This document shows, piece after piece, positions 19,527-57,926 of a stretch of DNA of 61,182 nt. The notes beneath the pieces are model-generated. The model did no database searches and was not told the DNA's origin. It saw nothing but the letters and a program-made list of their open reading frames with translations. The DNA comes from an uncultured bacterium (GTDB lineage Bacteria; Patescibacteriota; Dojkabacteria; SC72). The stretch is taken from NCBI GenBank assembly GCA_903840015.1, contig CAIMEL010000008.1, positions 1 through 61,182 on the forward strand, given 5' to 3'. Made by a program: the position numbers and the translations under genes. Each line of letters begins with the position of its first letter. Within the stretch, counting starts at the first letter, position 1.

Positions 19527-19600
19527 TGGACGATGATGGATTCGAACCAACGACCCCTACAATGTGAATGTAGTGCTCTAACCAGCTGAGCTAATCGTCC
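19527..19600 (-). tRNA. tRNA-Val(CAC), CCA not encoded
   Basis: Acceptor GGACGAT/ATCGTCC; anticodon arm CTACA-ttCACat-TGTAG. Confidence 0.95.
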
Positions 19601-19612
19601 CTTTGTGATGTA

Positions 19613-19855
19613 TTATACCCCTTGTGAAGGAGTATCTGAAGTGTTTTCTGTTTGTTCAACAACAGGTTTCTCTTCTACCTCCGGTTGAATATTTCCAGCA
19701 GCTAAATCTCTCTTAAAAGCATCCCAGATTAGATAGAAGGCGATGAGGAGGAAAGGAAAAGCAAAACCAACAAAGATATTACGAGTTACAAATCCTGCAA
19801 TTAAACCTAACAAGATACCACCACCACCCCAAATTACAATCTTACCTATACTCAT
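19613..19855 (-). CDS. Small membrane protein
   Basis: Two hydrophobic segments and an acidic tail. Confidence 0.65.
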   Translation of the reverse strand: MSIGKIVIWGGGGILLGLIAGFVTRNIFVGFAFPFLLIAFYLIWDAFKRDLAAGNIQPEVEEKPVVEQTENTSDTPSQGV

Positions 19856-19924
19856 ACAAATATATTATATATTTGAGTGGATGTTGTAAAGGGAAAAAAT
19901 ACCCAAACAATATTTAGAATGGTA

Positions 19925-20323
19925 TTAAAACAGATAACCACAGAACTCTGCTTTTATCTGATATTCTCTATCGGGAGTCGCTATCATTTCTTCTGGAACT
20001 ATACAGTCTCCAAGATTATAATCATCTCCTATTTCTTCCGCAGCAATATCAAAACCTTGCTCATTACAATATCTTGCTAATCTTTCTTTATAATCTTTGT
20101 TTACAGCTTCTGCACATTCATGCTCTGATATAACTTTCCTTGGCTCAATATTAAATCCTAATTTATAATCTGAACTCATATTCATTTTGAACCCAGGGAA
20201 CTGAGAATATAAATACAGAGTAGATATTAGGAGAAGTACAATTACTATAAGCATAAAAGCAAATAATGGTTTTCGCATATTGTCTATTTTATTAAATTTA
20301 AAATTGAATGCCCTTTTATTCAT
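19925..20323 (-). CDS. Hypothetical single-pass protein
   Basis: Basic N-terminus, TM helix, Cys-containing exported domain. Confidence 0.6.
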   Translation of the reverse strand: MNKRAFNFKFNKIDNMRKPLFAFMLIVIVLLLISTLYLYSQFPGFKMNMSSDYKLGFNIEPRKVISEHECAEAVNKDYKERLARYCNEQGFDIAAEEIGDDYNLGDCIVPEEMIATPDREYQIKAEFCGYLF

Positions 20324-20410
20324 AGGATTCTTTTCACTTATATTACTATATATTCAGCATTGACGGAATTATTTATATTATCAACATCGTTACAGGGGGA
20401 AAAGGATGGA

Positions 20411-20487
20411 TGGTGGGCGACATAGGATTCGAACCTATGACCCTCTCGGTGTAAACGAGATGCTCTGACCAGCTGAGCTAGTCGCCC
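20411..20487 (-). tRNA. tRNA-Val(UAC), CCA encoded
   Basis: Acceptor GGGCGAC/GTCGCCC plus ACCA; anticodon arm TCTCG-ttTACac-CGAGA. Confidence 0.96.
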
Positions 20488-20499
20488 ATAACAGACATA

Positions 20500-20586
20500 T
20501 GCCGGGGACAGGAGTTGAACCTGCACGGGAGTATAAATCCCACTACCACCTCAAGGTAGCGTGTCTGCCAATTCCACCACCTCGGC
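20500..20586 (-). tRNA. tRNA-Leu(GAG), CCA not encoded
   Basis: Long variable arm; anticodon arm CTACC-ttGAGgt-GGTAG; acceptor GCCGAGG/CCCCGGC. Confidence 0.95.
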
Positions 20587-20694
20587 ACATACTACAGCAA
20601 TTCTATCAAACAACCCTTCTAAACTCAATGAAAAAGTTTTTGCAAAAATATCCATTTTGATGCAAAATAGAAAGATAATATAACCATCAAAACA

Positions 20695-21966
20695 ATGAAA
20701 ATCAAATCCATCCAAGCACAAGAAGTACTAGATTCAAATGGTAATCCAACAATATCTACAAAAATAGAGCTACTAAGTGGTGATATTGGTATAGCCCAAG
20801 TACCATCAGGAGCATCAACAGGAACAACTGAAGTATTGGAAATGAGAGACCAAGATCCAAAAAGATATGATGGCAAAGGTGTTCTTAATGCTGTAGAAAT
20901 AGTAAATACAACCATAGAGGATATTGTGCTAGATCATGAATTTACAAGTCAAAAAGAATTTGATGATCTTCTAATAAAAATAGATGGTACTGAACTAAAA
21001 AACAAATTTGGTGGTAACACAATACTCTCCTGTTCCATGGCTTTTGCCAAAGCAGTAGCCAACAGTATTGGGTTAGAACTGTATGAATACATAGGGATGA
21101 TATATTGGGATAACGAATACAAGGTTGAGAAATTAAAACTTCCAATTCCTCAGATGTTAGTGCTAGAGGGTGGGAAGCATGGTAATTGGGCCACAGATAT
21201 ACAAGAATATATGATAGTACCTAACTCTTCAAAATATTCTACATTTGCAGAACAATTAAGAGTAAGTACACAGGTATATCAAAAAATTGGAAAGATCTTA
21301 CAACAGAAAGAATACTCTACAGGAGTAGGATTCGAAGGTGCCTTTGCTCCGAGAGAAATGAGAGAAAACAAAGAAGCCTTCTCCATAATTATGGATGGTC
21401 TTACAGAAAGTGGTTTCAAAGCAGAAGAGGATTTTACAATAGCTATAGATGTAGCATCTTCTGAATTCTTCAATCAAGAAAATCAAAGATATGAACTAAA
21501 GAGAGAGAATCTCTCACTAGACAGTATAGAATGGGCTAACCTACAGAAGGAATGGTACATCAACTATCCAATATCATCCATTGAAGATCCATTTGATCAG
21601 GAGGATTGGAATGGGTGGGCAAGATTCATGGTAGAAGCTGGTAGTAGATACCAGATAGTTGGAGATGACCTCTTAACTACAAACACATCACGTATTAAAA
21701 AAGGTATTGAAAGGAAAGCTATGAATGCTGTACTCATCAAGCCAAATCAGATAGGGACAGTGTCTGAGACCTTAGACGCTATTAGGATGACAGTAGACAA
21801 TCATATGGAAGCAATAATCTCACACAGAAGTGGAGAAACAACAGATACCTTCATAGCTGACCTAGTTGTAGGAACAGCAGCAAAGTTTAGTAAATTTGGA
21901 GCTCCCAATAGAGGAGAAAGAATAGCTAAATACAACAGGTTGTTGGATATAGAAAAAAGGAGCTAG
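20695..21966 (+). CDS. eno: Enolase
   Basis: LDSNGNPT, VPSGASTG, IQEYM, IEDPF, VGDDL, IKPNQIG, SHRSGET, ERIAKYN. Confidence 0.96.
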   Translation: MKIKSIQAQEVLDSNGNPTISTKIELLSGDIGIAQVPSGASTGTTEVLEMRDQDPKRYDGKGVLNAVEIVNTTIEDIVLDHEFTSQKEFDDLLIKIDGTELKNKFGGNTILSCSMAFAKAVANSIGLELYEYIGMIYWDNEYKVEKLKLPIPQMLVLEGGKHGNWATDIQEYMIVPNSSKYSTFAEQLRVSTQVYQKIGKILQQKEYSTGVGFEGAFAPREMRENKEAFSIIMDGLTESGFKAEEDFTIAIDVASSEFFNQENQRYELKRENLSLDSIEWANLQKEWYINYPISSIEDPFDQEDWNGWARFMVEAGSRYQIVGDDLLTTNTSRIKKGIERKAMNAVLIKPNQIGTVSETLDAIRMTVDNHMEAIISHRSGETTDTFIADLVVGTAAKFSKFGAPNRGERIAKYNRLLDIEKRS

Positions 21967-22034
21967 GGGGGGATGTGGGAACTTGTGTTGTTACAGTGTA
22001 ACCGATAATCGGCATACGTCATCCACCCCTAGCT
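21961..22034. repeat. 15-bp inverted repeat enclosing two short palindromes
   Basis: AGCTAGGGGGGGATG (21961-75) vs CATCCACCCCTAGCT (22020-34), 14/15 complementary; inner GTTAC-agt-GTAAC and CCGA-taa-TCGG. Confidence 0.75.
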
Positions 22035-22037
22035 AGG

Positions 22038-22111
22038 AGTCCTCGATGGGATTTGAACCCATAACCTTACCCTTACAAAGAGTATGCTCTACCGGGTTGA
22101 GCTACAAGGAC
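22038..22111 (-). tRNA. tRNA-Thr(UGU), followed by CCT rather than CCA
   Basis: Acceptor GTCCTTG/CGAGGAC; anticodon arm TACTC-ttTGTaa-GGGTA. Confidence 0.93.
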
Positions 22112-44310: not shown

Positions 44311-46230
44311 ATGAAACTAGACAAAAAGAAAGCCCTAAAGATAACCCTCATAGGAATACCTGTTCTCCTAATCCTCCTTCTTCTCTCCTTCTGTATATAC
44401 ATCCTCTCTTTTAAACAGATTCTTCAATACGACAATATCATTCGGAGTTCTGAGAAATATTGCATTACAGGGAATTTCTTTCTACCCTCCCTCTACAAAA
44501 TCACATATGACACCCCCGTAGAGATAGACACAGAAGAGACAGTAACAATATTCAACAAGTTTGATATATTTGCAAAATCCATATGCATACAATCTCAAAC
44601 ACTCTTACCTGAAAATTCTCTAACAACTCTCTCGCTCACTTTCCTTGGTAATACTGGTCTACAGATATTTAAAGAAGAGATATCCATACCAACAGAGGAA
44701 TACCCAAAAGTAAGCGAAGCTCCTTCAGACAGAGATTTCAATATATCAGAAAGCATCTCCTACGAAATTACAAATCCCAATCCCCTACTTCAATACAAGT
44801 TACTCGAAGGGGAGAATGAGACTCTGTGTTCACTCGAAGACAGTACATTACACTGTAATCTAGAAGAATTGGAGCTACAGTATGGAGGGGAGTATGAACT
44901 CACTCTGATATCAACATATAACTCGGCAATTGTAGATGAACTAGACTCTTCCCAAATAGAGACATTAGAACCAGTAAAGATTGTATCAACAAATATAAAA
45001 CAGGGAGGAACAATATATGACTTAAATCCTAAGATCGTTTTTAGTACAAACAAACCAGTAGAATTCATAGGAGAAAACACACTCGAAAATAGCGAAGGAG
45101 TAAAAACACAATTAGTTATATCAACAAAAGGCAATACAATAACCATGGAACCAAAATCTCCTCTTTCTCAGAAGAGTACATACACTCTCACTCTTGGTAA
45201 TCTGAAAGCTGAAGATGGAAGTGAGTTAACAGATCCATTTACTTTAAAATTCAAAACCGGAGATGGCCCTAGACCCAGATACACAAATATATCTGGATAT
45301 GGCTTCCCCACAGGTAGCAATATATACATAACATTTGACCAAGACTTGAAGAGTAATCAGGATATTAGTAAGAAAATTCTTCTTTCAGATTCAACAACAT
45401 ATACATATTCGATATCAAATAATAGGATTAGTATAAATCCAAAAACATCATTAAAAGCATGCAAAACATACTCCCTTGTTCTTAAACAGAGCATCTTAAG
45501 TGACAATGAGTTATCCTCCTCTCAAGAATATACATATACGTTCAAAACAAAATGCGCTCGAATAGTTACTCTTGGTTCTTCAGTACAATCTCGACCAATA
45601 TACGCCTACTATTTCGGAACTGGTAGTAAGAAAATAGTCTTCTTCGGAGCTATGCATGGTTCCGAAGCCAAAACAAAGGATACTATGTTAAGTTGGATTG
45701 CTGAATTAGAAAAAAATAGTTCTAAAATACCCTCTGACAAAACAGTAATCGTAGTACCTACATTCAATCCAGATGGTATTGCAAATCAAAGCAGATTTAA
45801 TGCTAACAAAGTAGATATCAATCGTAATTTCGATACTTCTGATTGGAGTCCTGATTCATATTTTTTAAGCAAGAAGTATGTTAATGGTGGAGGTACAGAA
45901 CCATTTTCAGAACCAGAAACAAGATTAATCCGAAACTTAATTACAAACAACCATCCTTACCTTACACTTTCTTACCATTCAGCAGCATCATACACCATTC
46001 CGTGTGGTACATCAAAATCTTTTGAATATGGAACAATATATTCACAACTCTCGGGATATAGATATGTACCTCCAGAGTATGAAGATGCGTTCTCATACAC
46101 AGTCACAGGGTCACTGGGTACCTGGGCCAAAGAAAATGGTTACAATGAGTTAACCATAGAGGTATCTTCACCATATGTAGACGAATTTAGTAGAAATGTT
46201 AAGGCCATGTGGAAAATGGTTACGATGTAA
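44311..46230 (+). CDS. Membrane-anchored M14 Zn carboxypeptidase with Ig-like domains
   Basis: TM anchor, Ig-like repeats, then GSSVQSRPI, GAMHGSE (HxxE), NPDG, RFNANKVDINRNF, FSEPET, SYHS. Confidence 0.85.
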   Translation: MKLDKKKALKITLIGIPVLLILLLLSFCIYILSFKQILQYDNIIRSSEKYCITGNFFLPSLYKITYDTPVEIDTEETVTIFNKFDIFAKSICIQSQTLLPENSLTTLSLTFLGNTGLQIFKEEISIPTEEYPKVSEAPSDRDFNISESISYEITNPNPLLQYKLLEGENETLCSLEDSTLHCNLEELELQYGGEYELTLISTYNSAIVDELDSSQIETLEPVKIVSTNIKQGGTIYDLNPKIVFSTNKPVEFIGENTLENSEGVKTQLVISTKGNTITMEPKSPLSQKSTYTLTLGNLKAEDGSELTDPFTLKFKTGDGPRPRYTNISGYGFPTGSNIYITFDQDLKSNQDISKKILLSDSTTYTYSISNNRISINPKTSLKACKTYSLVLKQSILSDNELSSSQEYTYTFKTKCARIVTLGSSVQSRPIYAYYFGTGSKKIVFFGAMHGSEAKTKDTMLSWIAELEKNSSKIPSDKTVIVVPTFNPDGIANQSRFNANKVDINRNFDTSDWSPDSYFLSKKYVNGGGTEPFSEPETRLIRNLITNNHPYLTLSYHSAASYTIPCGTSKSFEYGTIYSQLSGYRYVPPEYEDAFSYTVTGSLGTWAKENGYNELTIEVSSPYVDEFSRNVKAMWKMVTM

Positions 46231-46776: not shown

Positions 46777-47385
46777 ATGGGTAGATTTTTTAATGACAGA
46801 AATTCAGGACGAAGAAGTAGTGGTAGATCTGAAAGACCAACAATGCATCGTGCTGTGTGTGACAAATGTGGTAATGACTGTGAAGTGCCTTTCAAACCAT
46901 CTGGAGAGAAACCAATTTACTGTAGTAGATGTTTTGAAACAATGGGAAACACCTCTAGCAACAGAGACAGAGGAAGCTACAGGGATTTCGGCAGTAGAGA
47001 TAGAGGTAATTTCAGAGATTCAGGAAGAAAAGAGATGTTTTCAGCTGTTTGTGATAAATGTGGTGAAGAATGTGAGGTACCTTTCAAACCAAGTAGCGAC
47101 AAACCAATTTACTGTAGTAGATGTTTTGAAACAGTAGGAAACCGAAGAGAAGACAGAGGTTCACAAAACAGACCTTCTAGTAACAACACTGCAGAAATAT
47201 CGCAATTGAAAGAACAGCTAGGTAGTATTAGTGCAAAACTAGACAAATTACTTAAAATTCTTACACCTGTTGAAGTTGAGGTTAAAGAAGTAGAGAAAAA
47301 GACAACTAAGAAAGCTACTACTAAAGCCAAAGCAGAACCGAAGAAGAAGGTAGCTACAAAGAAAAAGGTGACAAAGAAAGAATAA
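46777..47385 (+). CDS. CxxC-x17-CxxC double zinc-ribbon protein with Lys-rich tail
   Basis: Two copies of CDKCG..CEVPFKPS..KPIYCSRCF with RG/RD-rich spacers. Confidence 0.88.
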   Translation: MGRFFNDRNSGRRSSGRSERPTMHRAVCDKCGNDCEVPFKPSGEKPIYCSRCFETMGNTSSNRDRGSYRDFGSRDRGNFRDSGRKEMFSAVCDKCGEECEVPFKPSSDKPIYCSRCFETVGNRREDRGSQNRPSSNNTAEISQLKEQLGSISAKLDKLLKILTPVEVEVKEVEKKTTKKATTKAKAEPKKKVATKKKVTKKE

Positions 47386-48585: not shown

Positions 48586-49512
48586 TTAAACTGTAGGGAA
48601 CTCCGGCGGAGTTGGTTCCTGAGCCGTCGGGACCTCATCAACAACTGGTTGTTGAACCTGTACCGGTACAGTCTCCGTCACAATCGGGGACTGACCCAGA
48701 TCTGTCCCACTCGGCGATGGAGTCTCAGTTTGAATAGCTGGCATCGTATCCGTTACGATCGGGGACTGACCCACATCTGGTCCACTAGGCAAAGGACTCT
48801 CGGTTCGAATAGCTGCTGGTTGTTCGGAAACTTTTTTACGTTTAACCATGAAGAAGTAGAGAATAGCACCAAGTGTATTAAGCAAGAGAAGAATAACAAT
48901 CCACATACTCTTCTTCTCAAAATCTCTCTTCAAACAATCAATGAACATCCATATCCAAAAAGCTGTGAACAGTAAACATATTGGGATGATGATCAAAGCC
49001 ATATTACCCAAAAGTCCAAGAACAAAATCACCTCCCAGTTTCTGGTAGAAATCAGTATCAGATATTAACCATGTACTCCCTGTCTTCTCTAAGACAAAAT
49101 ATGTAGACAAACCAGCAACATTCCAGCCATCACCCTCTGCAGAAAATTTCGCTTTAACTTTGACCTTCCCATCACCAACTATATCAACATTATCTACAAG
49201 ATTCCCATAATCTAAAACATACGATATTCCAGTACCAACTTTCTCCTCGATCATACCCATCCTACTTTCATCTTGAGACACCATCAATGACCCTATCTCT
49301 GCCATATTACCAACCTTAATAGCTGATACCAACCTGTCTAAAGTATTACTAATACCATTCTTCTCCTCCGTACTTAATACTCCCTGTCCCAGTACAGGCA
49401 TCGCAAACAGAAACAAAAAGAACAAAGACAATGCAACCAGGATTTTATTCCTCATCTGTAAAAAAGATAAGATTATTACAATCAGTTTAACAAAGCATTC
49501 AAAGGAAAACAA
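48586..49512 (-). CDS. Exported domain plus PLDc_N-type TM hairpin and Pro/Thr-rich tail
   Basis: Signal peptide; WIWMFIDC...W...LLLNTLGAILYFF. Confidence 0.75.
   Translation of the reverse strand: MFSFECFVKLIVIILSFLQMRNKILVALSLFFLFLFAMPVLGQGVLSTEEKNGISNTLDRLVSAIKVGNMAEIGSLMVSQDESRMGMIEEKVGTGISYVLDYGNLVDNVDIVGDGKVKVKAKFSAEGDGWNVAGLSTYFVLEKTGSTWLISDTDFYQKLGGDFVLGLLGNMALIIIPICLLFTAFWIWMFIDCLKRDFEKKSMWIVILLLLNTLGAILYFFMVKRKKVSEQPAAIRTESPLPSGPDVGQSPIVTDTMPAIQTETPSPSGTDLGQSPIVTETVPVQVQQPVVDEVPTAQEPTPPEFPTV
48670..48819 (-). repeat. 75-bp in-frame tandem duplication
   Basis: PAAIRTESPLPSGPDVGQSPIVTDT / MPAIQTETPSPSGTDLGQSPIVTET; ATCGGGGACTGACCCA occurs in both copies. Confidence 0.9.
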
Positions 49513-49575: not shown

Positions 49576-51351
49576 ATGTCCTCAAATATGAAAAATATGA
49601 TATTGGGTGGATTGATAATTTTAAGTTCAACCGCCCTACTAGCCCTCTTAGTCTCCTTCAGCATATACCTCTACTCCAAATCAAAACAAACAAATATGGC
49701 AGATGTCGTTCCTAACTCTGCATATATTTCGGAGGATATTGGGTTGTTAGACGACAATCCAAGTGCACCAGAAGAGATAACGAAAGAATCTGTTACACCC
49801 GAACCTAAGAAGGGAATCATACAAAAAGATGAAACTCGTAAGATTGTAAATGTTGGGAAAACATTAACAGAGAGTGAAATTCAAGAGATAGAAGAAAAAT
49901 ACGCCGTGGAGTTCTCATCTGATACTCCAAAGAAAGGCATCTATGTTGTTACCACATCTTCAGAGAGCAAAACAGAAACTCTTCAGGAAGATTTAAACGC
50001 AACTGTTGAAGTAGACATACCTGTTAGAATGTCTGCACAAACTCTCGATTGGGGAGTAACAAGGATAGGAGCAGACAAAGTTTGGAGTAAAAGCACAGGA
50101 ACGGGGGTAAAGGTGGCAGTAATAGATACAGGAGTAGAGAGAACACACTCGGACCTAAGCTCAAATATTGTAGCAGGGTATGATTATGTAAATAATGATA
50201 CAGATCCAACAGATGATAACGGACATGGTACCCACGTTGCAGGAATTATCGCTAGTGTTAACAATACAGTAGGGAATGTTGGTGTGGCTAACAAGACTCA
50301 AATTATGCCAGTTAAAGTACTAAATAATCAGGGATATGGCTACCTTTCAGATGTTGCAAAAGGAGTTTACTTTGCAACAGACAATGGAGCTCGAATCATA
50401 AATATGAGCCTTGGCTCAACCTCAGATTCTTTGACACTAAAGAATGCAATAACCTACGCAACACAAAAAGGTGTTCTAGTTATAGCAGCCGCAGGTAATA
50501 GCAGTGGACAACCATGCGAATACCCTGCAGCATATACCTCGGTTGTGTGTGTTGTAGCAACAGACACATCGAACAAGTTAGCTAGTTTCAGTAACATGGG
50601 AGGAGAGCTAGCAGCACCTGGGGTCTCCAACTATTCATCTTACATTGGTAATACATACAGATATATGAGTGGAACAAGTATGGCAACACCCCACGTCGCA
50701 GGTGCAGCAGCAGTAATCCTTTCTATGTGTAATAGCTGCTCAACAACCGATGTTCGCAACCTTCTAAGAAGTACAGCAGTTGACCTTGGAGTCGTTGGAA
50801 GAGATTCAGTTTTTGGGTATGGGCTTGTAGATCTCGTAAGTGCTTCAGCTACATTTGAACAAGCTCCAGCACCTGAAGAAACTGTAACTCCAACACCAGA
50901 GGAACCTACAACACCCGTAGTAACACCTCCAGCTACAGTCAAACCACAAAAGAGATATCCAAAGCAAAAAATCTCAATAGTAGAACCTAAAGAAACTTCG
51001 ATGAAGAGATACATTCCGACTGTCCAAGAGGATATCACAATCAAATTTACATTAGATCCATTAAGTGAAGAAAGCAATTTCAAGGAAAGTATTCTTACTG
51101 TAAACAATATAGAGCTGTATGCAACTGAATTACAGAATGATGAATATATTGTAAAGAAGGAGTTACTAGATAGTTCCCAGCATTGGGTAAAAGTAACTTC
51201 ATATTTCGAAGATGGTACAACTTCATCTGACAGTATGATTATAGATTTAACTTCTTTTAGAAGGAAATCTCTAAGACAGAGTGATAGAAGTGTATTAGGA
51301 ATAGCAACATCAGCTATATTTGATTTTACATATTTTCTTTTTGGGAGATAG
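49576..51351 (+). CDS. Membrane-anchored S8 subtilisin-like serine protease
   Basis: TM, propeptide-like region, VAVIDTG / HGTHVAG / GTSMATPHVAG triad, PT linker, C-terminal beta domain. Confidence 0.95.
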   Translation: MSSNMKNMILGGLIILSSTALLALLVSFSIYLYSKSKQTNMADVVPNSAYISEDIGLLDDNPSAPEEITKESVTPEPKKGIIQKDETRKIVNVGKTLTESEIQEIEEKYAVEFSSDTPKKGIYVVTTSSESKTETLQEDLNATVEVDIPVRMSAQTLDWGVTRIGADKVWSKSTGTGVKVAVIDTGVERTHSDLSSNIVAGYDYVNNDTDPTDDNGHGTHVAGIIASVNNTVGNVGVANKTQIMPVKVLNNQGYGYLSDVAKGVYFATDNGARIINMSLGSTSDSLTLKNAITYATQKGVLVIAAAGNSSGQPCEYPAAYTSVVCVVATDTSNKLASFSNMGGELAAPGVSNYSSYIGNTYRYMSGTSMATPHVAGAAAVILSMCNSCSTTDVRNLLRSTAVDLGVVGRDSVFGYGLVDLVSASATFEQAPAPEETVTPTPEEPTTPVVTPPATVKPQKRYPKQKISIVEPKETSMKRYIPTVQEDITIKFTLDPLSEESNFKESILTVNNIELYATELQNDEYIVKKELLDSSQHWVKVTSYFEDGTTSSDSMIIDLTSFRRKSLRQSDRSVLGIATSAIFDFTYFLFGR

Positions 51352-51357
51352 AATAAA

Positions 51358-53583
51358 ATGGTATCGAATTTTTCAAGAGCTATAACAACCAGATTGGGAA
51401 GGATTTTTCTCCGAATTTTAGTTACTATCACAACCTTCTTTGTCATTCTATTACCTAGCCACAATGAACCCGTTTATGCAGCTGCCAGGCAAAATTATTA
51501 TGCGGAGTCAACCACACAAAGTACTTGGAATACAGATACAACATATCAAGATAAAACAACTTTGACTTTCACACCAGATGCCAACTCAACCTATGTAATA
51601 ATAGCTTCTTGGTTGGTACTATGTAACAATGTGACCTATGCTGTCTACTCAAAACTTACTCGCACAACAGGAACTGCTAAGGACTTCAATGAATTAATAT
51701 ACTTTCCCAAAGATACAACAGACTATATAGCTGGAGGAGCAGTCGCTTTTGATTCATTTGGGAGCAGTCCAACTTCTCAAACCTACAAAATACAATATCG
51801 ACCATCCAATACAGCAGCAACAGCTTCAATTAAAGAAGCCAAGATTATTGCCATCAAACTAAATGAAGAGGATAAATATGCTGAAGTAGATGCAAGAACC
51901 ACAACACAACAAACAGCCTACCAAGATAAAGTCACTCTAAATTTCACCCCAACTTATCAGGGCGATTATATAATTCTCGCTTACGCAACCGGTGATGGAG
52001 CTATAAACTCATATGACTTCCGCATACAGATGAATATTGATGGGACTGCCTATTCTAATTACAATATTGAACCTGTGAATGCTGCTAACAGATATTTATT
52101 TGGTACTGTAAAAAAAGTGAATTTTGACGCTACATCTCATACGATAAAGATACAGTACAGTACAGAGAGTAATAACTCGGCTAGGGTCGCAGGCATTGCA
52201 AATGCCAGAATTCTTGCTTTGAGAGCAGACTATTTCAATAATTCGTATTTTGCAGAATCAGAAGCTTTAAGTACAACCACATCTACAACTTACTCATCCA
52301 AAACAACTTTGACAGAAACACCTTTAGCTGTAGATCATCTCATAATAGGAGCTTCTGGAATCGCTGGTAATAGTGCCTCCTATTCCACCTATACTCAATT
52401 ACTCAAAAATACAACTTCTTATGGAGAAATGCTTATAGAAACAAAGGATACATTAAATTATGGATATCCCTACTTTGTTATAAAAAAAGAAACACTAGCA
52501 AATACTTCAACTTCGTGGTATTTACAATACAAATCGGAAAATGCAGCTGCAACAGCTTGGATCCGAGATTCAAGAATTGCAGTAATTGAGTTAGAAGAAC
52601 CTTCCTTCGTAATCACAGCGAATACAGCTGGTACACAAATTACAAATTTACACCAAGGAGAATCCAACGCACATATTGGTGGGGCATTTACATTTACAAG
52701 AAATCTTACTTCGACTTCTGTAACAAGTATAACCATAAGTGAAACAGGGACTATTTCTGATTCAAACATTTCAGGCTTAATAATATATTACAAACAAGAA
52801 GCAACTTGCTCCACCACAATTCCAGGAGATGCAACTCAATTTAATAGTACCCCAGGATCTTTCTCTTCGGGAAGCTCCACAGTAACAGGCAGTATGACCG
52901 TTGGTACATCACAGATATGTGTATACATAGAAGTAGATATTGGATCAGGGGCTGGAGTTGGAGATACAGTGGAAATACAAATTACAAATCCCTCTACCCA
53001 AGTAACAGCATCCAGTGGTACTGTGTCTCCTGCAACTGCTGTAGCCATAAGTGGGACAACAACAATAATTTCGGCAGGAGCGCTTGCCGTAGATATAGTA
53101 GATGGTAGTGACCAAACAGTTAGTAGCCCATCGGTAAGTTTTAGTAACACTTTTTTTAGTTGGGTTGGAGCACAGACAACAGGCACACTTGGAACAAGTA
53201 CACAGAAAATAAAAGTAACAAACACAACCACAACACACACATGGACTCTTTCCATTGCAGCTACAAGTGGAGAATCCGCTCTCTGGCAAGATTCACCAAA
53301 TTCATATGACTACAATGGTACTCAATCCGCTGGCAGACTAAGAGTAAATCCATCTTCCGTAACTATAACCCCAGGAGGAGCATGTAGTAATACAGGTATC
53401 TCTGGTCAATCAGCACAGTATTTTGTTAGCGGTTCTGTATCTTCCATAAACCTAGTCATAGCATCTGCAAGTGCAGAGCACAATTGCTATTGGTACATAA
53501 CTGCCGTGGGACTGACCCAGGACATACCTGCAGAACAACCAACAGGAACATACAGCTTAGGAATGACTATTACTGTAATTTAA
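51358..53583 (+). CDS. Large secreted adhesin-like protein: three ~125-aa repeats, Ig-like domain, C-terminal WxL-like domain
   Basis: Signal peptide; three YAE-initiated repeats; C-terminal ~170 aa homologous to 55945..56592. Confidence 0.8.
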   Translation: MVSNFSRAITTRLGRIFLRILVTITTFFVILLPSHNEPVYAAARQNYYAESTTQSTWNTDTTYQDKTTLTFTPDANSTYVIIASWLVLCNNVTYAVYSKLTRTTGTAKDFNELIYFPKDTTDYIAGGAVAFDSFGSSPTSQTYKIQYRPSNTAATASIKEAKIIAIKLNEEDKYAEVDARTTTQQTAYQDKVTLNFTPTYQGDYIILAYATGDGAINSYDFRIQMNIDGTAYSNYNIEPVNAANRYLFGTVKKVNFDATSHTIKIQYSTESNNSARVAGIANARILALRADYFNNSYFAESEALSTTTSTTYSSKTTLTETPLAVDHLIIGASGIAGNSASYSTYTQLLKNTTSYGEMLIETKDTLNYGYPYFVIKKETLANTSTSWYLQYKSENAAATAWIRDSRIAVIELEEPSFVITANTAGTQITNLHQGESNAHIGGAFTFTRNLTSTSVTSITISETGTISDSNISGLIIYYKQEATCSTTIPGDATQFNSTPGSFSSGSSTVTGSMTVGTSQICVYIEVDIGSGAGVGDTVEIQITNPSTQVTASSGTVSPATAVAISGTTTIISAGALAVDIVDGSDQTVSSPSVSFSNTFFSWVGAQTTGTLGTSTQKIKVTNTTTTHTWTLSIAATSGESALWQDSPNSYDYNGTQSAGRLRVNPSSVTITPGGACSNTGISGQSAQYFVSGSVSSINLVIASASAEHNCYWYITAVGLTQDIPAEQPTGTYSLGMTITVI

Positions 53584-53589
53584 TCTATA

Positions 53590-54888
53590 ATGAAACCTAT
53601 GAAATTATTTAAGCCATTTGGAATACTTCTCACACTACTTTTCTTCTTTTTTTTAGCAACTCCCTCCCTTGCCATAGAGTATTTCTTCCTAGGTGGGAGA
53701 CCAGCAAATCCTGATTCCAAAATTCCCAATAGCTCTGCATGGTTCATCTATTCCCTGAACCCCGGAGAACAGAAAGAAGATGCCTTAGAAGCTATAAACA
53801 ATTACGAACAACCAACAGAACTACTAATTTATGCAGCTGATGGGATTAAAAGTTCAAGTGGAGGTTTTGCCTTAAAACAGTATGTAGAACCAAGGACAGA
53901 TGTAGGTTCATGGGTACGATTCTATCCATATGATGTTCCCAAACCATTTGAGAAACTATTTAAAGCAAATGGAAACAGTATACTTAGATTCTGTGAACAA
54001 GAATTAGACAATAGTTGGGATAGCGATGAAAAAAAAGCTTTTCAAGAATGGTGCGAAGGAGAAGAAACAGTCCAAATCAAAATTAGTGCTAAATCAAAAA
54101 GAAATGTAGATTTTGTATTCTCAGTACCAGATAATGCAAGTGTCGGTGAACATACTGGAGGAATACTCATACAGAAAGTAGAGAAAGATGAAAGCCCCGA
54201 CAAACAGGGTATTTCTCTTACCACAAGAGTTGGAATCAGAATATATCAAACTGTTCCTGGAGATATACAGAAAAAACTGGCTATTAGTAACTTCTCCCTT
54301 AAGAAACTTTACGAAGAATTAGATTTTTCCAAACTATTCAAAAAAGATACAAAGCCTGAAGAATTCCTCATAACTACAGAGCTTCGAAACGAAGGGAATG
54401 TAAGTATTGATTTTATGGAAACCATTATCATAAATGACGATCTATTTAACAAGTCAGAAGAGAGAGTATCAGATAGAAAGTTTCAGATTCTAAGAGATGA
54501 TAATTTTACCTCAAACTATTCATGGTACAGCCCAAGGTTTGGGAAATTCAGCATATCAAACAACATCTCATACACTGATGAAAATAACCAACCAAAATTA
54601 CTTAGCAGCAACAAAATTACTGTATGGATAATTCCTTGGAGAGAGATGATTGTCGCGGGAGGAATCCTTCTCTTAATACTAATACCTTCAATACTTCTTA
54701 GAGCTGCTCAGAAGAAAAAATATGGGGGAATTGGATGGAAAGAGTATACAATTCAAGTTGGTGACACATTAGATAGCATAACTTCCAAGTTTGATGTAAA
54801 TTGGAAACTCTTCGTAAAAACAAACAAGATAGAACCTCCATATACTCTTACACCTGGTAAAAAGGTTCTTGTTCCACCATTAAAGTAA
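53590..54888 (+). CDS. DUF916-type (WxL-interacting) protein with TM anchor and C-terminal LysM
   Basis: WFIYSLNPGE..ED...N, YAADG..SSSGGFAL, VGSWV, VP.NA..GEH.GGI, RVGIRIY; TM; YTIQVGDTL..I...F.V....N.I...L.PG..V.VP. Confidence 0.82.
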   Translation: MKPMKLFKPFGILLTLLFFFFLATPSLAIEYFFLGGRPANPDSKIPNSSAWFIYSLNPGEQKEDALEAINNYEQPTELLIYAADGIKSSSGGFALKQYVEPRTDVGSWVRFYPYDVPKPFEKLFKANGNSILRFCEQELDNSWDSDEKKAFQEWCEGEETVQIKISAKSKRNVDFVFSVPDNASVGEHTGGILIQKVEKDESPDKQGISLTTRVGIRIYQTVPGDIQKKLAISNFSLKKLYEELDFSKLFKKDTKPEEFLITTELRNEGNVSIDFMETIIINDDLFNKSEERVSDRKFQILRDDNFTSNYSWYSPRFGKFSISNNISYTDENNQPKLLSSNKITVWIIPWREMIVAGGILLLILIPSILLRAAQKKKYGGIGWKEYTIQVGDTLDSITSKFDVNWKLFVKTNKIEPPYTLTPGKKVLVPPLK

Positions 54889-54951
54889 GATTTTCACTAC
54901 AACCGAAATTTGATATCATCAAATATATCTTAATAACAAATATTAGGGGAT

Positions 54952-55866
54952 ATGAATCGTTTTGCTAAAATATTTTTCCTTGCCCTACTACTCTGTTGTA
55001 TCCCAACAAACCATGCATTTGCAAAAGAAAAAGAATATATACCATCGACCCATATAATTGAGGAGATTACACAGAAGAAAAGTACTAACAAAGTACCGTT
55101 TGAGATAAATCTCTGTCCACAGAAGAGAATAAAAACACAGACGATTGATTTAGAAACAATACTAGATACAAAACCATATATCACAAAAACAAACATATAT
55201 CATTTACTAAGAAACCAAGTTCAATCTTACTCGATAAAACAGGAAGTCCCCAATACAAGCAAATCTCTCACATACTACTTAAGCAAATCATCTGAAAAAT
55301 TAGAAATCAAATATAAGGGTATACTTCAATCCTTCAAGGAATCACATAGAGAAAAAATTTCCGTAACAAAATACTCCAGAGATATCGCTAACAAACTACA
55401 AGAGGAAACTTCAATACCGAAAAAAGAGTTTAGATGGGAGAAGATTGCATCAACAGTCCATATTCAAGCTTCTGCCCCTACGGTTCCAGAGATTAGAACT
55501 GAAACAAAAGTTTCAAAGGAAGGAAAATCCTCCAATAACCAAACTAATGTAGAATTTAAATTAACAATTCTCCCTGTTAGATTTGTGTATATTGAAGATG
55601 GAGAGATTGTAAAGATTTGGAATAACACGAAAAAAAATGATAGTAGATATGCCTTGAAATTCTTCGACTATCAAACAGAAGAAGAGATCAATCCTACCAA
55701 TACAATGTATGCAACATACAATCAATTGATCACTCAGCTTAATGTATTCTCCCAAGGAATCATATTTGAAAAAGGACAAACTGTCACAACGGATGAAAAG
55801 ATTACCTGGGATATACAGATGAGCTATACATCAAAAGGCTCGGAGGAGGTACATACATATATCTAA
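54952..55866 (+). CDS. Secreted hypothetical protein within the surface cluster
   Basis: Signal peptide ending AFA; C-terminal ILPVRFVYIEDG...WNNT domain. Confidence 0.7.
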   Translation: MNRFAKIFFLALLLCCIPTNHAFAKEKEYIPSTHIIEEITQKKSTNKVPFEINLCPQKRIKTQTIDLETILDTKPYITKTNIYHLLRNQVQSYSIKQEVPNTSKSLTYYLSKSSEKLEIKYKGILQSFKESHREKISVTKYSRDIANKLQEETSIPKKEFRWEKIASTVHIQASAPTVPEIRTETKVSKEGKSSNNQTNVEFKLTILPVRFVYIEDGEIVKIWNNTKKNDSRYALKFFDYQTEEEINPTNTMYATYNQLITQLNVFSQGIIFEKGQTVTTDEKITWDIQMSYTSKGSEEVHTYI

Positions 55867-55873
55867 AAAACTG

Positions 55874-55902
55874 TTGACACAGTAAAAAGAATAAGATACT
55901 AT
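55874..55902 (+). promoter_or_regulatory. Sigma70-type promoter for the small WxL-like subunit
   Basis: TTGACA (55874-79), 17-nt spacer, TACTAT (55897-902); ACTGT/ACAGT inverted repeat overlaps the -35. Confidence 0.65.
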
Positions 55903-55944
55903 TTTCTAAGATCAAGATTTGTTCGTAATTATAGAGAAAGAAGA

Positions 55945-56592
55945 ATGAAATATACTGCCATTAGTAGATTAAAAGGAATAGCAAAAAGTTTCCTGTTAGT
56001 ACCCCTTTTCATAGCATTGGTGTTTGCACAGATTGTACTTGCAGATACAACCGAGACAACCTTTAATCAAACCATCAATGCAGGGACACTAAGTGTTGAT
56101 ATTGTAGATGGCTCTGGGGATACTGTAGCTAGCCCTTCTGTATCATTTGCAGGCACAACCTTTTCGTTTGACCCTCAAACAGCAACAGGTACCTTGGAAA
56201 CCGCATCAGAGAAAATCAGACTAAGTAACCCTACAGCTACAGCGGCTTGGAATATCTCCATAGCAGCAACTGGAGGACAAAGTGCTGTTTGGGACACTGG
56301 GACATACACATATCCTTACAACAATGCAACAGCAGATAACGGTAGGCTAACCATAGATCCTAGTGTAGCCACTGTAACACCTGTGGGAAGTTGTACTAGT
56401 ACCGGAGTAACCAAAGGAAGTTCTTCATATTTTAATGGTGCAACTACAACAAGTATCGATTTACTGACCGCGAGTGGTAGTGCTGATTTGGGGTGTAGAT
56501 GGGATTTGACTGGAGTTTCTCTTTCTCAAAGGATTCCTGCCTCACAAGTCGCAGGTAGCTACTCCTTAGCAATGACAATTACTGCACTCTAA
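55945..56592 (+). CDS. Small secreted WxL-like beta protein (candidate major pilin)
   Basis: Signal peptide ending VLA; WNISIAAT, CRWDL, terminal SQRIPASQVAGSYSLAMTIT; Cys pair shared with the adhesin domain. Confidence 0.75.
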   Translation: MKYTAISRLKGIAKSFLLVPLFIALVFAQIVLADTTETTFNQTINAGTLSVDIVDGSGDTVASPSVSFAGTTFSFDPQTATGTLETASEKIRLSNPTATAAWNISIAATGGQSAVWDTGTYTYPYNNATADNGRLTIDPSVATVTPVGSCTSTGVTKGSSSYFNGATTTSIDLLTASGSADLGCRWDLTGVSLSQRIPASQVAGSYSLAMTITAL

Positions 56593-57239: not shown

Positions 57240-57926
57240 ATGACTATTCCAATTGGAACAATAATTAATATCGGCGCAGTAATATTAGGAGGGAGTATAG
57301 GGTTAGTTGTAAAACAAAATCTACCAGAAAGATACAAACTTATCATTTTTCAAGGAATAGGACTATTTACCATACTCCTTGGCATATCAATGGCTACACC
57401 CTTACCCAATCCACTACTCGTTGTCTTTGCCATACTCATTGGAGGTACTATCGGAGTAGCCCTAAAATTAGAGAGAAGGATGGAAACCCTTTCTACGGAT
57501 ATTGGAAAGAACTTAAAATTAAAGGACTCAAAATTTAACGAAGGATTAGTAACCGCCTTTCTTATCTACTGTATTGGTTCAATGACAATACTAGGATCAA
57601 TAAATGAAGGTATAAATGGTGACAATAGTCTGTTACTAACCAAATCTGTAATGGATGGATTCACATCAATTGCCCTTGCCTCGACATTCGGAGTTGGGGT
57701 ACTCTTCTCGACCATTCCAATGCTAATCTTCCAAGGAGGCTTAACAATTTTAGCTTCGTTCTTGGGAGCTTTCTTTACAGAAAGTTTAATTCAATACCTA
57801 TCTTGCATTGGTGGGATATTAATAATAGGGGTAGGAATAAATCTGCTAGAATTGAAAAAGATCTCAGTCTTAAACTTACTACCCTCCTTGATAATCATAA
57901 TCGTCCTCTACCTGTTATTCTCCTAG
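57240..57926 (+). CDS. DUF554-family membrane protein
   Basis: GTIINIGAVILG, YCIGSMTILG, KSVMDGF, VLNLLPSL. Confidence 0.88.
   Translation: MTIPIGTIINIGAVILGGSIGLVVKQNLPERYKLIIFQGIGLFTILLGISMATPLPNPLLVVFAILIGGTIGVALKLERRMETLSTDIGKNLKLKDSKFNEGLVTAFLIYCIGSMTILGSINEGINGDNSLLLTKSVMDGFTSIALASTFGVGVLFSTIPMLIFQGGLTILASFLGAFFTESLIQYLSCIGGILIIGVGINLLELKKISVLNLLPSLIIIIVLYLLFS

Follow-up and report, generated by a model that had tools for sequence, protein, structure and literature searches.

A candidate WxL/WxLIP-type surface display cluster in Dojkabacteria and other Candidate Phyla Radiation bacteria

We analysed a 61,182-nucleotide (nt) stretch of DNA (the window, G+C ∼36%) from an uncultured bacterium of the Dojkabacteria (Patescibacteriota; GenBank assembly GCA_903840015.1, contig CAIMEL010000008.1), focusing on a cluster of genes for exported proteins. 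Five co-oriented open reading frames (ORFs) lie on its plus strand at positions 49576–56592, separated by gaps of 6, 6, 63, and 78 nt. An earlier note, made from the sequence alone, had described five co-oriented exported proteins with gaps of 6–78 nt and had proposed a pilus that needs neither usher nor sortase; we found the ORFs exactly where it had placed them. The genes encode, in this order, an S8-family protease (49576–51351, 591 aa), a large protein termed LARGE (51358–53583, 741 aa), a WxLIP-like protein with a DUF916 domain (53590–54888, 432 aa), a secreted protein of 304 aa (54952–55866), and a small protein termed SMALL (55945–56592, 215 aa). All five proteins carry a hydrophobic signal or anchor segment at the N-terminus; that of the 304-aa protein falls under the hydropathy cutoff, yet is visible in the sequence.

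Pfam gave no match for LARGE, the 304-aa protein, or SMALL, and NCBIfam likewise gave nothing for these three. None of the five proteins (0/5) has an LPxTG motif, and a motif scan of the ORFs of the window found no sortase TLxTC motif and no prepilin motif, in agreement with the earlier note, which had seen neither an LPxTG signal nor a sortase. No Pfam family of PapD-type chaperones or outer-membrane ushers was found among the cluster proteins or the scanned neighbours. A sequence scan found no plus-strand terminator within the cluster, and promoter-like sites occurred at chance level: this result is compatible with a single operon and is not evidence for one. Among the named relatives of SMALL, those nearest to it come from Candidatus Dojkabacteria, and farther matches are named Moranbacteria and Parcubacteria. 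In one Dojkabacteria contig (L001), synteny with the window extends to the UDG and radical-SAM genes on the flanks.

SMALL and the end of LARGE are built from the same domain. SMALL consists of a signal peptide (residues 1–33), a short N-terminal extension (34–46), and a WxL-like, pilin-fold domain (47–215). LARGE consists of a signal peptide, a variable head, a stalk, and a C-terminal WxL-like (pilin-like) domain (residues 571–741, positions 53068–53580, plus strand). BLASTP aligned residues 44–215 of SMALL with residues 571–741 of LARGE at 86/172 identities (50%, E = 2e-46), and the C-terminal domain of LARGE matched the SMALL hidden Markov model (HMM) at E = 2.7e-62. The cysteine pair C150/C184 of SMALL corresponds to C676/C710 of LARGE. 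The sequence similarity is far beyond chance, which upholds the homology and the common Cys pair claimed in the earlier note. The position of the domain in large proteins is nearly fixed: in every large protein of the loci that we collected (45/45), it ends at most 3 residues from the C-terminus, and in 109 of 111 large database proteins at most 5 residues from it. Small-type and large-type domains form two ancient paralogue classes that were both retained across the Candidate Phyla Radiation (CPR): the best match outside a protein's own locus falls in its own class for 68/69 small and 44/46 large domains.

We searched for the SMALL family in 1.84 billion representative proteins with a profile (E ≤ 1e-3) and clustered the matches at 50% identity. 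The family comprised 772 clusters and was sharply bounded. A genome scan of one genome per species, with a 14-sequence alignment as the query, returned 60 loci; ORFs were called in every locus and then searched with profiles. SMALL, the DUF916 protein, and LARGE (whose last ∼180 residues are the SMALL domain) occurred together in 42/62 loci, and the loci without the full triad either run into the end of a contig or rely on an alternative genetic code. The triad was present in at least 11 CPR lineages: Dojkabacteria, Paceibacterota, Kerfeldbacteria, Peri/Peregrinibacteria, Saccharibacteria, Levybacteria, Komeilibacteria, Doudnabacteria, Gracilibacteria, Falkowbacteria, and Microgenomates. About 12 loci of the scan are labelled Gammaproteobacteria or similar; we take these labels to come from mislabelled metagenome bins. 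The commonest gene order was SMALL-WxLIP-LARGE, the same order as in a Listeria WxL locus. In four loci (L006, L007, L008, and L034), SMALL and the WxLIP-like gene were duplicated as a unit (SMALL1-WxLIP1-SMALL2-WxLIP2-…-LARGE). This joint duplication suggests that the two proteins may be cognate, one-to-one partners.

The two remaining genes are not part of this pattern. The S8 protease gene adjoins the cluster in just two cases, the window and a near-identical strain (L067); it was absent from the 60 other loci except for a distant copy in L029. Homologues of the 304-aa protein were found only in L001, L004, L008, L034, and the strain L067. Since the triad recurs in 42/62 loci and both the protease and the 304-aa protein are limited to particular lineages, the locus is, as judged from gene content, a three-gene core (LARGE, WxLIP-like, and SMALL) with two local additions. 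Synteny across CPR, which the earlier note had named as a check of its proposal, thus holds for three of the genes and fails for the S8 protease and the 304-aa protein. Its picture of five genes working as one system did not survive: as a neighbour of the cluster, the subtilisin is confined to this lineage, and the 304-aa protein is confined to close relatives. Nor can maturation by the protease be a general part of the mechanism, because the subtilisin adjoins the cluster only in this lineage and is missing from nearly all loci.

The WxLIP-like protein gave the clearest link to a known system. It consists of a signal peptide, a DUF916 domain (residues 38–195), a second Ig-like domain (∼196–340), a transmembrane helix (∼347–372), and a LysM domain (386–429). 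Pfam matched WxLIP_PGBD/DUF916 (PF06030) at E = 3.4e-7 (30.8 bits versus a cutoff of 27.3) and LysM at E = 9.2e-8. Among its 42 CPR homologues, DUF916 was matched in 34 and LysM in 36. We aligned the family by hhalign with a comparison set of three Firmicutes WxLIPs, the proteins annotated as 'DUF916 and DUF3324' in plasmid loci. The probability was 97.3% (E = 1.6e-11) over 282 columns that run through both DUF916 and DUF3324 as well as the transmembrane helix. Pfam PF11797 was not matched by the protein or by any of its 42 homologues. In the PDB, the family profile matched EfmWxLIP1 (9i25_C and 9i1y_A) at E = 4e-8 over the DUF916 domain. By profile comparison, this middle protein is a full-length WxLIP homologue with one C-terminal membrane helix and an added LysM tail. 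The earlier note had cast it as a membrane-bound chaperone or anchor, and its role as a membrane-bound holder fits this homology well.

The stretch at 54628–54876 (residues ∼347–429) places the LysM domain behind the single transmembrane helix, an arrangement also found in 36/42 homologues of the loci L001–L063. Firmicutes WxLIPs have only a short tail past the helix, where the CPR proteins have LysM. The mean net charge was +4.9 over the 15 residues past the helix versus +0.5 before it. From these flanking charges, a cytoplasmic location is predicted for LysM, a peptidoglycan-binding module.

By its published definition in Firmicutes (PMC9772566, PMC10599100), a WxL cluster has one WxLIP, a domain-only small WxL protein, and a large protein in which host-binding domains precede a C-terminal WxL domain. 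The CPR layout, a DUF916 protein beside a small and a large protein that end in the same domain, matches this definition and is not specific to pili; the earlier note had read it as the layout of donor-strand pili. That note had rightly linked DUF916 proteins to WxL clusters, and it had not recognised the 215-aa domain as the WxL equivalent. We propose that the cluster is the CPR version of the WxL/WxLIP (Csc) clusters: a three-gene surface display system with swappable heads and attachment through the shared domain. We put the probability of this reading at roughly 0.65. On this reading, the cluster is a plausible host-attachment device rather than a demonstrated new pilus, and by analogy a host- or glycan-binding function is likely.

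The proposed mechanism is drawn by analogy from the enterococcal, listerial, and lactobacillar systems. SMALL, the WxLIP-like protein, and LARGE all have export signals. The shared domain would be the attachment module and would dock, by non-covalent contacts, on the ectodomain of WxLIP, on wall glycan, or on both. The conserved N-terminal extension of SMALL would probably take part in docking through pairing of edge strands. LARGE would thereby be held with its head pointing outwards. The head would be the ligand-binding part: three ∼120-aa repeats in this strain, and lectin, ConA-like, BNR, and H-lectin domains in a few relatives. Exchange of the head between near-identical strains would be as expected for the host- or glycan-recognition module of an episymbiont. 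For Firmicutes, AlphaFold predicts that a strand of WxLIP is inserted into the WxL domain, beside its N-terminus (PMC10599100). Such an insertion would give the extension of SMALL a simpler use than polymerisation, namely docking on WxLIP.

Is the shared domain a WxL domain? We compared its family with a set of true WxL proteins, made of the plasmid loci L064–L066 and 120 PF13731 proteins. The hhalign alignment was collinear over 152–189 columns, covered the full length, and kept the first W-x-L strand in register. Its probability was 74.8% with the signal peptides included; when these were trimmed, it was 10–32% or 81.3%, depending on the definition of match columns. The scores were 26–41, compared with at most 22.8 for 30 column shuffles, 12–19 for reversed alignments, and 13 for TasA. 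The first W-x-L motif is aligned with W102-N-I in SMALL and W629-T-L in LARGE, and W102 is near-invariant in the family. A conserved W186-D-L pairs with the 'GTW' of WxL proteins. We also compared AlphaFold2 models of SMALL and of a small Listeria WxL protein, the latter with a predicted local distance difference test (pLDDT) score of 89.1. Both models have 11–12 strands in the same order, and their DSSP strings agree at 84% of aligned positions versus 38–65% when the register is shifted. The two models also have weak PDB neighbours in common, among them 8psv_A, 9fxa_K, 9iug_A, 9fx0_A, and 3jwn_G. Chaperone-usher pilins such as FimA rods, CFA/I, Csu, and FimG are neighbours of both, and SMALL in addition has the archaeal CanA. 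Weighing the profile alignment and the predicted structures jointly with the WxLIP partner, we rate the shared domain as a divergent WxL-like domain that lies outside the Pfam family as now defined.

Several results weigh against this assignment and against the system that we build on it. Pfam WxL (PF13731) matched none of 106 family members (0/67 and 0/39) at E ≤ 10, and no other family was matched consistently by SMALL and its relatives. HMM-to-sequence searches between the SMALL and WxL families reached at best 11.6 bits with reversed controls at 6 bits, which is near noise. The profile search that yielded the 772 clusters showed no sign of the far bigger Firmicutes WxL family, and the hhalign probability against WxL drops to 10–14% under one reasonable parameter setting. 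The second, C-terminal W-x-L motif is absent: the family has MT[IL]T there (MTIT in SMALL) and no Trp. Unlike those of Firmicutes, its small and large domains are alike in fold, with 50% identity. The cluster also lacks an LPXTG partner, which is frequent in WxL clusters though not obligatory. Against a role in host attachment, a comparable cluster of Southlakia was non-essential in co-culture (PMC10633639). 

The AlphaFold2 monomer of SMALL was confident (pLDDT 90.1, and 87 for residues 41–50). Its nearest PDB structures in Foldseek were CfaB (E = 1.6e-3), the archaeal CanA, and the Csu, AggA, and Fim pilins. These matches are weak, with E-values of 1.6e-3 to 0.3, TM-scores of 0.3–0.48, and root-mean-square deviations (rmsd) of 8–14 Å; within these bounds (E ≥ 1.6e-3), they agree with the pilin-like character that the earlier note had seen in the shared domain. 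A weak likeness to carbohydrate-binding module (CBM)-type folds, namely CBM29 and cohesins, was also listed. PDB sequence searches with the single SMALL sequence and with two profiles gave only chance-level matches (CBM6, E = 0.0085; a thaumatin-like protein, E = 0.0012). Because the model of a true WxL protein from Listeria has these pilins as its matches too, a pilin-like fold in such models is by itself no argument for a shaft.

The N-terminal extension of SMALL (56044–56082, plus strand; DTTETTFNQTINA) covers ∼13 residues directly past the signal-peptide cleavage site, with an alternating F-x-Q-x-I-x-A pattern and the family consensus A|xNTxxFxQTIxAG. The cleavage site is of the A-x-A type, and SMALL has no lipobox. 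The extension is conserved at 1.7–3.5 bits per position in 163 small proteins, versus 0.35–1.8 bits at the same positions in 100 large proteins. The short N-terminal strand that the earlier note had pointed out is thus real and particular to the small proteins. An extension specific to SMALL favours some strand-pairing role, as far as conservation can tell, and it is compatible with roles other than polymerisation, such as docking on WxLIP. Separately, the mature N-terminus of SMALL (56044–56100; …TFNQTINAGTLSVDIVD) resembles the donor-strand region of TasA/CalY (…NNTFAAGTLDL). A relationship to TasA/camelysin, suggested by weak Pfam matches in 2/39 members (E = 0.039) and by this N-terminal 'F..AGTL.[LV]D' likeness, was rejected: hhalign of the SMALL family against three TasA-family proteins from Bacillus plasmids gave 0.2%, and TasA was not among the 50 top Foldseek matches listed for SMALL.

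The head of LARGE (51475–52587, plus strand; residues 40–410) consists of three tandem repeats of ∼120 aa (40–169, 170–294, and 295–410). The repeats align with each other by hhalign at 99.7–99.9% (E = 9e-27 to 6.5e-35). The head module matched no Pfam family and no PDB structure, and we therefore regard the triple-repeat module, at the level of sequence, as an uncharacterised family in its own right. It had 87 database matches, mostly stand-alone secreted metagenome proteins of ∼390 aa, and its two named carriers are labelled as metagenome-assembled genomes of Chloroflexi and Euryarchaeota. Comparison of the window with the strain L067 was informative. The small proteins are 92% identical and the C-terminal 348 aa of LARGE are 84% identical, and the heads are unrelated (window 51358–52540 versus L067 3167–3700; 741 aa for LARGE here versus a shorter 518 aa in L067). 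This contrast indicates a recent replacement of the head. Across CPR, the large proteins range from 340 to 2179 aa. Pfam recognises domains in only about 10/33 of them, including DUF7483 in two, and Laminin_G_3, BNR_2, H_lectin, BclA_C, and Gly_rich_2 in one each. Heads are thus apparently swappable, and lectin-like in a minority of relatives. In these comparisons, the head behaves like an exchangeable ligand-binding module that is carried by a constant anchor.

The earlier proposal of a donor-strand pilus has to be weighed against the WxL-type display system. SMALL would polymerise head-to-tail through its N-terminal extension, LARGE would be the tip, the WxLIP-like protein a chaperone or anchor, and the S8 protease would mature the subunits in this lineage. 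The nearest PDB folds of SMALL (CfaB, CanA, Csu, AggA, and Fim) are indeed donor-strand polymers, its disulphide pair is conserved, and a ∼13-residue extension conserved in the small proteins only is the pattern of a polymerising subunit versus a tip adhesin. WxLIP has two Ig-like domains, and one of its strands is predicted to insert into WxL (PMC10599100). Donor-strand fibres that need neither chaperone nor usher also exist (TasA, archaeal threads, and cannulae). However, the Foldseek matches are weak (TM-scores of 0.3–0.48, rmsd of 8–14 Å) and are given equally by a genuine Listeria WxL protein, from a family that is described as wall-bound and not filamentous. The monomer of SMALL is predicted with confidence in the absence of a partner (pLDDT 90, and 87 at residues 41–50). 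SMALL is duplicated together with WxLIP and not alone, the protease is absent from nearly all loci, and there is no TasA homology (hhalign 0.2%). We therefore consider a pilus of this kind unlikely. A bolder version would join the two views: WxL-type domains of CPR, and by extension of Firmicutes, would be pilin-fold subunits put together by donor-strand complementation, with the two-Ig-domain WxLIP as a membrane-anchored, PapD-like chaperone and anchor, and SMALL would form, through its N-terminal extension, a short fibre or at least a strand-swapped SMALL-LARGE-WxLIP complex with LARGE at the tip. This is a long shot. If true, chaperone-usher pili would have in this cluster a monoderm relative that works with neither usher nor sortase and occurs CPR-wide.

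The same architecture might also serve glycan capture rather than host adhesion: the heads would bind environmental or host-derived polysaccharides and help to harvest them, as in the original Csc hypothesis for Lactobacillus plantarum. Carbohydrate use was proposed for the Csc clusters (PMC1534035). In L. brevis, WxL proteins have cellulose and xylan as ligands (PMC9026416). Heads of a few relatives contain domains of lectin type or associated with glycosidases (Laminin_G_3, BNR_2, H_lectin, and Ig_Rha78A_N, one protein each), SMALL itself is weakly CBM-like (CBM6 at E = 0.0085; CBM29 and cohesins in Foldseek), and the Southlakia cluster is non-essential for epibiotic growth. On the other hand, the window and the loci inspected have no glycoside hydrolase or sugar transporter beside the cluster, the head of this strain contains no recognisable carbohydrate-binding family, and head swapping fits host-surface recognition equally well. 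We judge a harvesting role quite improbable. It could finally be argued that the shared domain is unrelated to WxL, an independent beta-sandwich peculiar to CPR, wall-binding or CBM-like, whose pairing with DUF916 arose by convergence. The failure of PF13731 (0/106), the near-noise HMM-to-sequence scores, an hhalign probability that can fall to 10%, and the missing second WxL motif would all be expected then. Yet the two domains align collinearly from end to end with a score higher than that of any control, and 84% of the aligned positions agree in secondary structure, with 11–12 strands in the same order. The two families also have the PDB neighbourhood, the partner, the gene order, and the small/large architecture in common. 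Convergence is thus very unlikely.

The closest known systems are the WxL/WxLIP clusters of Bacilli: SwpA-LwpA-DufA and Elr of Enterococcus, the Listeria cluster, and CscA-D of Lactiplantibacillus (PMC9772566, PMC10599100, PMC1534035). Like them, the CPR cluster combines a DUF916-DUF3324-transmembrane protein, a small protein made of signal peptide and domain, and a large protein with a related C-terminal domain. Both have variable heads and export all of their components, and the Listeria gene order is found in CPR. The first W-x-[LIV] strand is kept, and the small domain has a pilin-like predicted fold in both. However, the CPR domain is invisible to PF13731, has no second C-terminal WxL motif, and, unlike small WxL proteins of Bacilli, lacks an N-terminal strand with a Pro-rich linker. 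The CPR small and large domains have the same fold at about 47–50% identity, whereas those of Firmicutes are reported to differ in topology. LysM past the transmembrane helix (36/42 CPR members), the lack of an LPXTG partner, and the host phylum, Patescibacteria, also set the CPR cluster apart from those of Bacilli. A WxL-WxLIP complex has been solved: PDB 9i25 contains a 'WxL domain surface protein' with EfmWxLIP1, and 9i1y contains EfmWxLIP1. The WxL chain 9i25_A was not matched by the SMALL profiles in sequence searches, and even our profile of small WxL proteins reached it at only E = 1.1e-3; two Enterococcus faecium plasmid WxL proteins did not retrieve it from the PDB by sequence either. 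Foldseek with the SMALL or the Listeria WxL model did not retrieve 9i25.

Within CPR, a putative counterpart is in the Saccharibacterium Southlakia epibionticum, where SEML1_0625–0628 comprise the genes of an Fn3-rich protein of 1284 aa, a DUF916 protein, a protein of 188 aa, and one more small protein (PMC10633639, Tables S1/S2). SEML1_0626 is labelled DUF916 and has two Ig-like domains (PMC10633639). The adjacent 188-aa SEML1_0627 has a 'WxL domain-containing protein' as its best match in the AlphaFold database and a pilin-type ECOD fold (PMC10633639, Table S2). The Southlakia DUF916 protein, at 316 aa, is apparently too short for a LysM tail. Transposon sequencing found SEML1_0626–0628 to be non-essential and disruption of SEML1_0625 to give a growth advantage (PMC10633639). 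The cluster is annotated in a table only and is not discussed in the text of that paper (PMC10633639).

The comparison with fibres is more mixed. Chaperone-usher pili (Fim, CFA/I, and Csu), CanA, archaeal threads, and TasA share several traits with the cluster, and the nearest solved folds of SMALL are among them. As in chaperone-usher pili, a subunit-only protein stands beside an adhesin that ends in a subunit-like domain, and as in donor-strand pili, a conserved N-terminal extension is present on the subunit alone, next to a partner with two Ig-like domains. Unlike chaperone-usher pili, the cluster has neither usher nor PapD-family chaperone, it belongs to an organism that lacks an outer membrane, and its Foldseek matches are weak. 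LARGE, moreover, carries its subunit-like domain C-terminally, and its own upstream segment is not deleted. Sortase-assembled Gram-positive pili differ in that the five proteins have no LPxTG and the window ORFs no TLxTC. TasA/camelysin (Peptidase_M73) fibres differ by the hhalign result of 0.2%. Type V pili, which form by protease-triggered strand exchange from lipoprotein precursors that lose an N-terminal strand to a dedicated protease, differ by the lipobox, which SMALL lacks, and by the protease, since S8 is absent from nearly all family loci.

For the way in which ultrasmall CPR (Patescibacteria) cells recognise and hold their hosts, type IV pili are, to our knowledge, the only attachment organelle studied so far. 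The cluster would be a second candidate CPR attachment system, a three-gene surface display that at least 11 CPR lineages have. Pfam recognises just one of its three components, and its outward head differs even between near-identical strains; because of this difference, the cluster is a plausible determinant of host or glycan specificity, and one that is genetically tractable in cultivable Saccharibacteria. The WxL/WxLIP system would also be extended well beyond Bacilli. Since the CPR domain and genuine WxL both lie near chaperone-usher pilins in fold space, a structural hypothesis for WxL-WxLIP cohesion presents itself. The basic architecture was already known in Firmicutes, and a Saccharibacteria cluster had DUF916 and WxL labels in a supplementary table and was non-essential in co-culture (PMC10633639). 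In the literature searched, we found no main text that connects CPR with WxL or DUF916 and no paper that ties WxL to donor strands.

The two local additions can be described further. The S8 protease matches Pfam Peptidase_S8 at E = 4.9e-61 (residues 175–416) and an NCBIfam mycosin-like model at 229.8 bits, under its cutoff of 278.75. The catalytic motifs around D184, H217, and S368 are present, together with an N-terminal hydrophobic anchor. By its motifs, this 591-aa protein is a membrane-anchored subtilisin-family (S8) protease, an accessory neighbour outside the conserved core. In the 304-aa protein, conservation is confined to the C-terminal ∼110 aa (∼197–304; motif TILPVRFVY...IWNN), and short homologues consist of a signal peptide and this conserved C-terminal domain. 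Its distribution marks it as a lineage-restricted accessory. The 304-aa protein was rejected as an equivalent of the LPXTG partner CscD (hhalign 1.4% versus the partners of two Firmicutes clusters).

Several neighbouring genes deserve mention. Divergent from the S8 protease gene, at 48586–49512 on the minus strand, lies the gene of a membrane protein (308 aa) that combines a PLDc_N / DUF5652-type segment with a repetitive tail rich in Pro, Thr, and Ser; strain L067 has it at this position too. A further exported enzyme is encoded at 44311–46230, about 3 kb upstream of the cluster: it is membrane-anchored, is 639 aa long, and has Big_5 Ig-like domains together with an M14 zinc carboxypeptidase domain. 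Between the two, at 46777–47385, is the gene of a 202-aa protein that has a Lys-rich tail and two zinc-finger repeats of the treble-clef type (Pfam zf_Tbcl_2, E = 3.7e-32). On the other side of the cluster, a DUF554 membrane-protein gene (57240–57926) lies between the UDG and NDK genes; it is missing there in strain L067, a strain-level insertion or deletion. The window contains six tRNA genes in total, four of which form a cluster at 19527–22111 on the minus strand.

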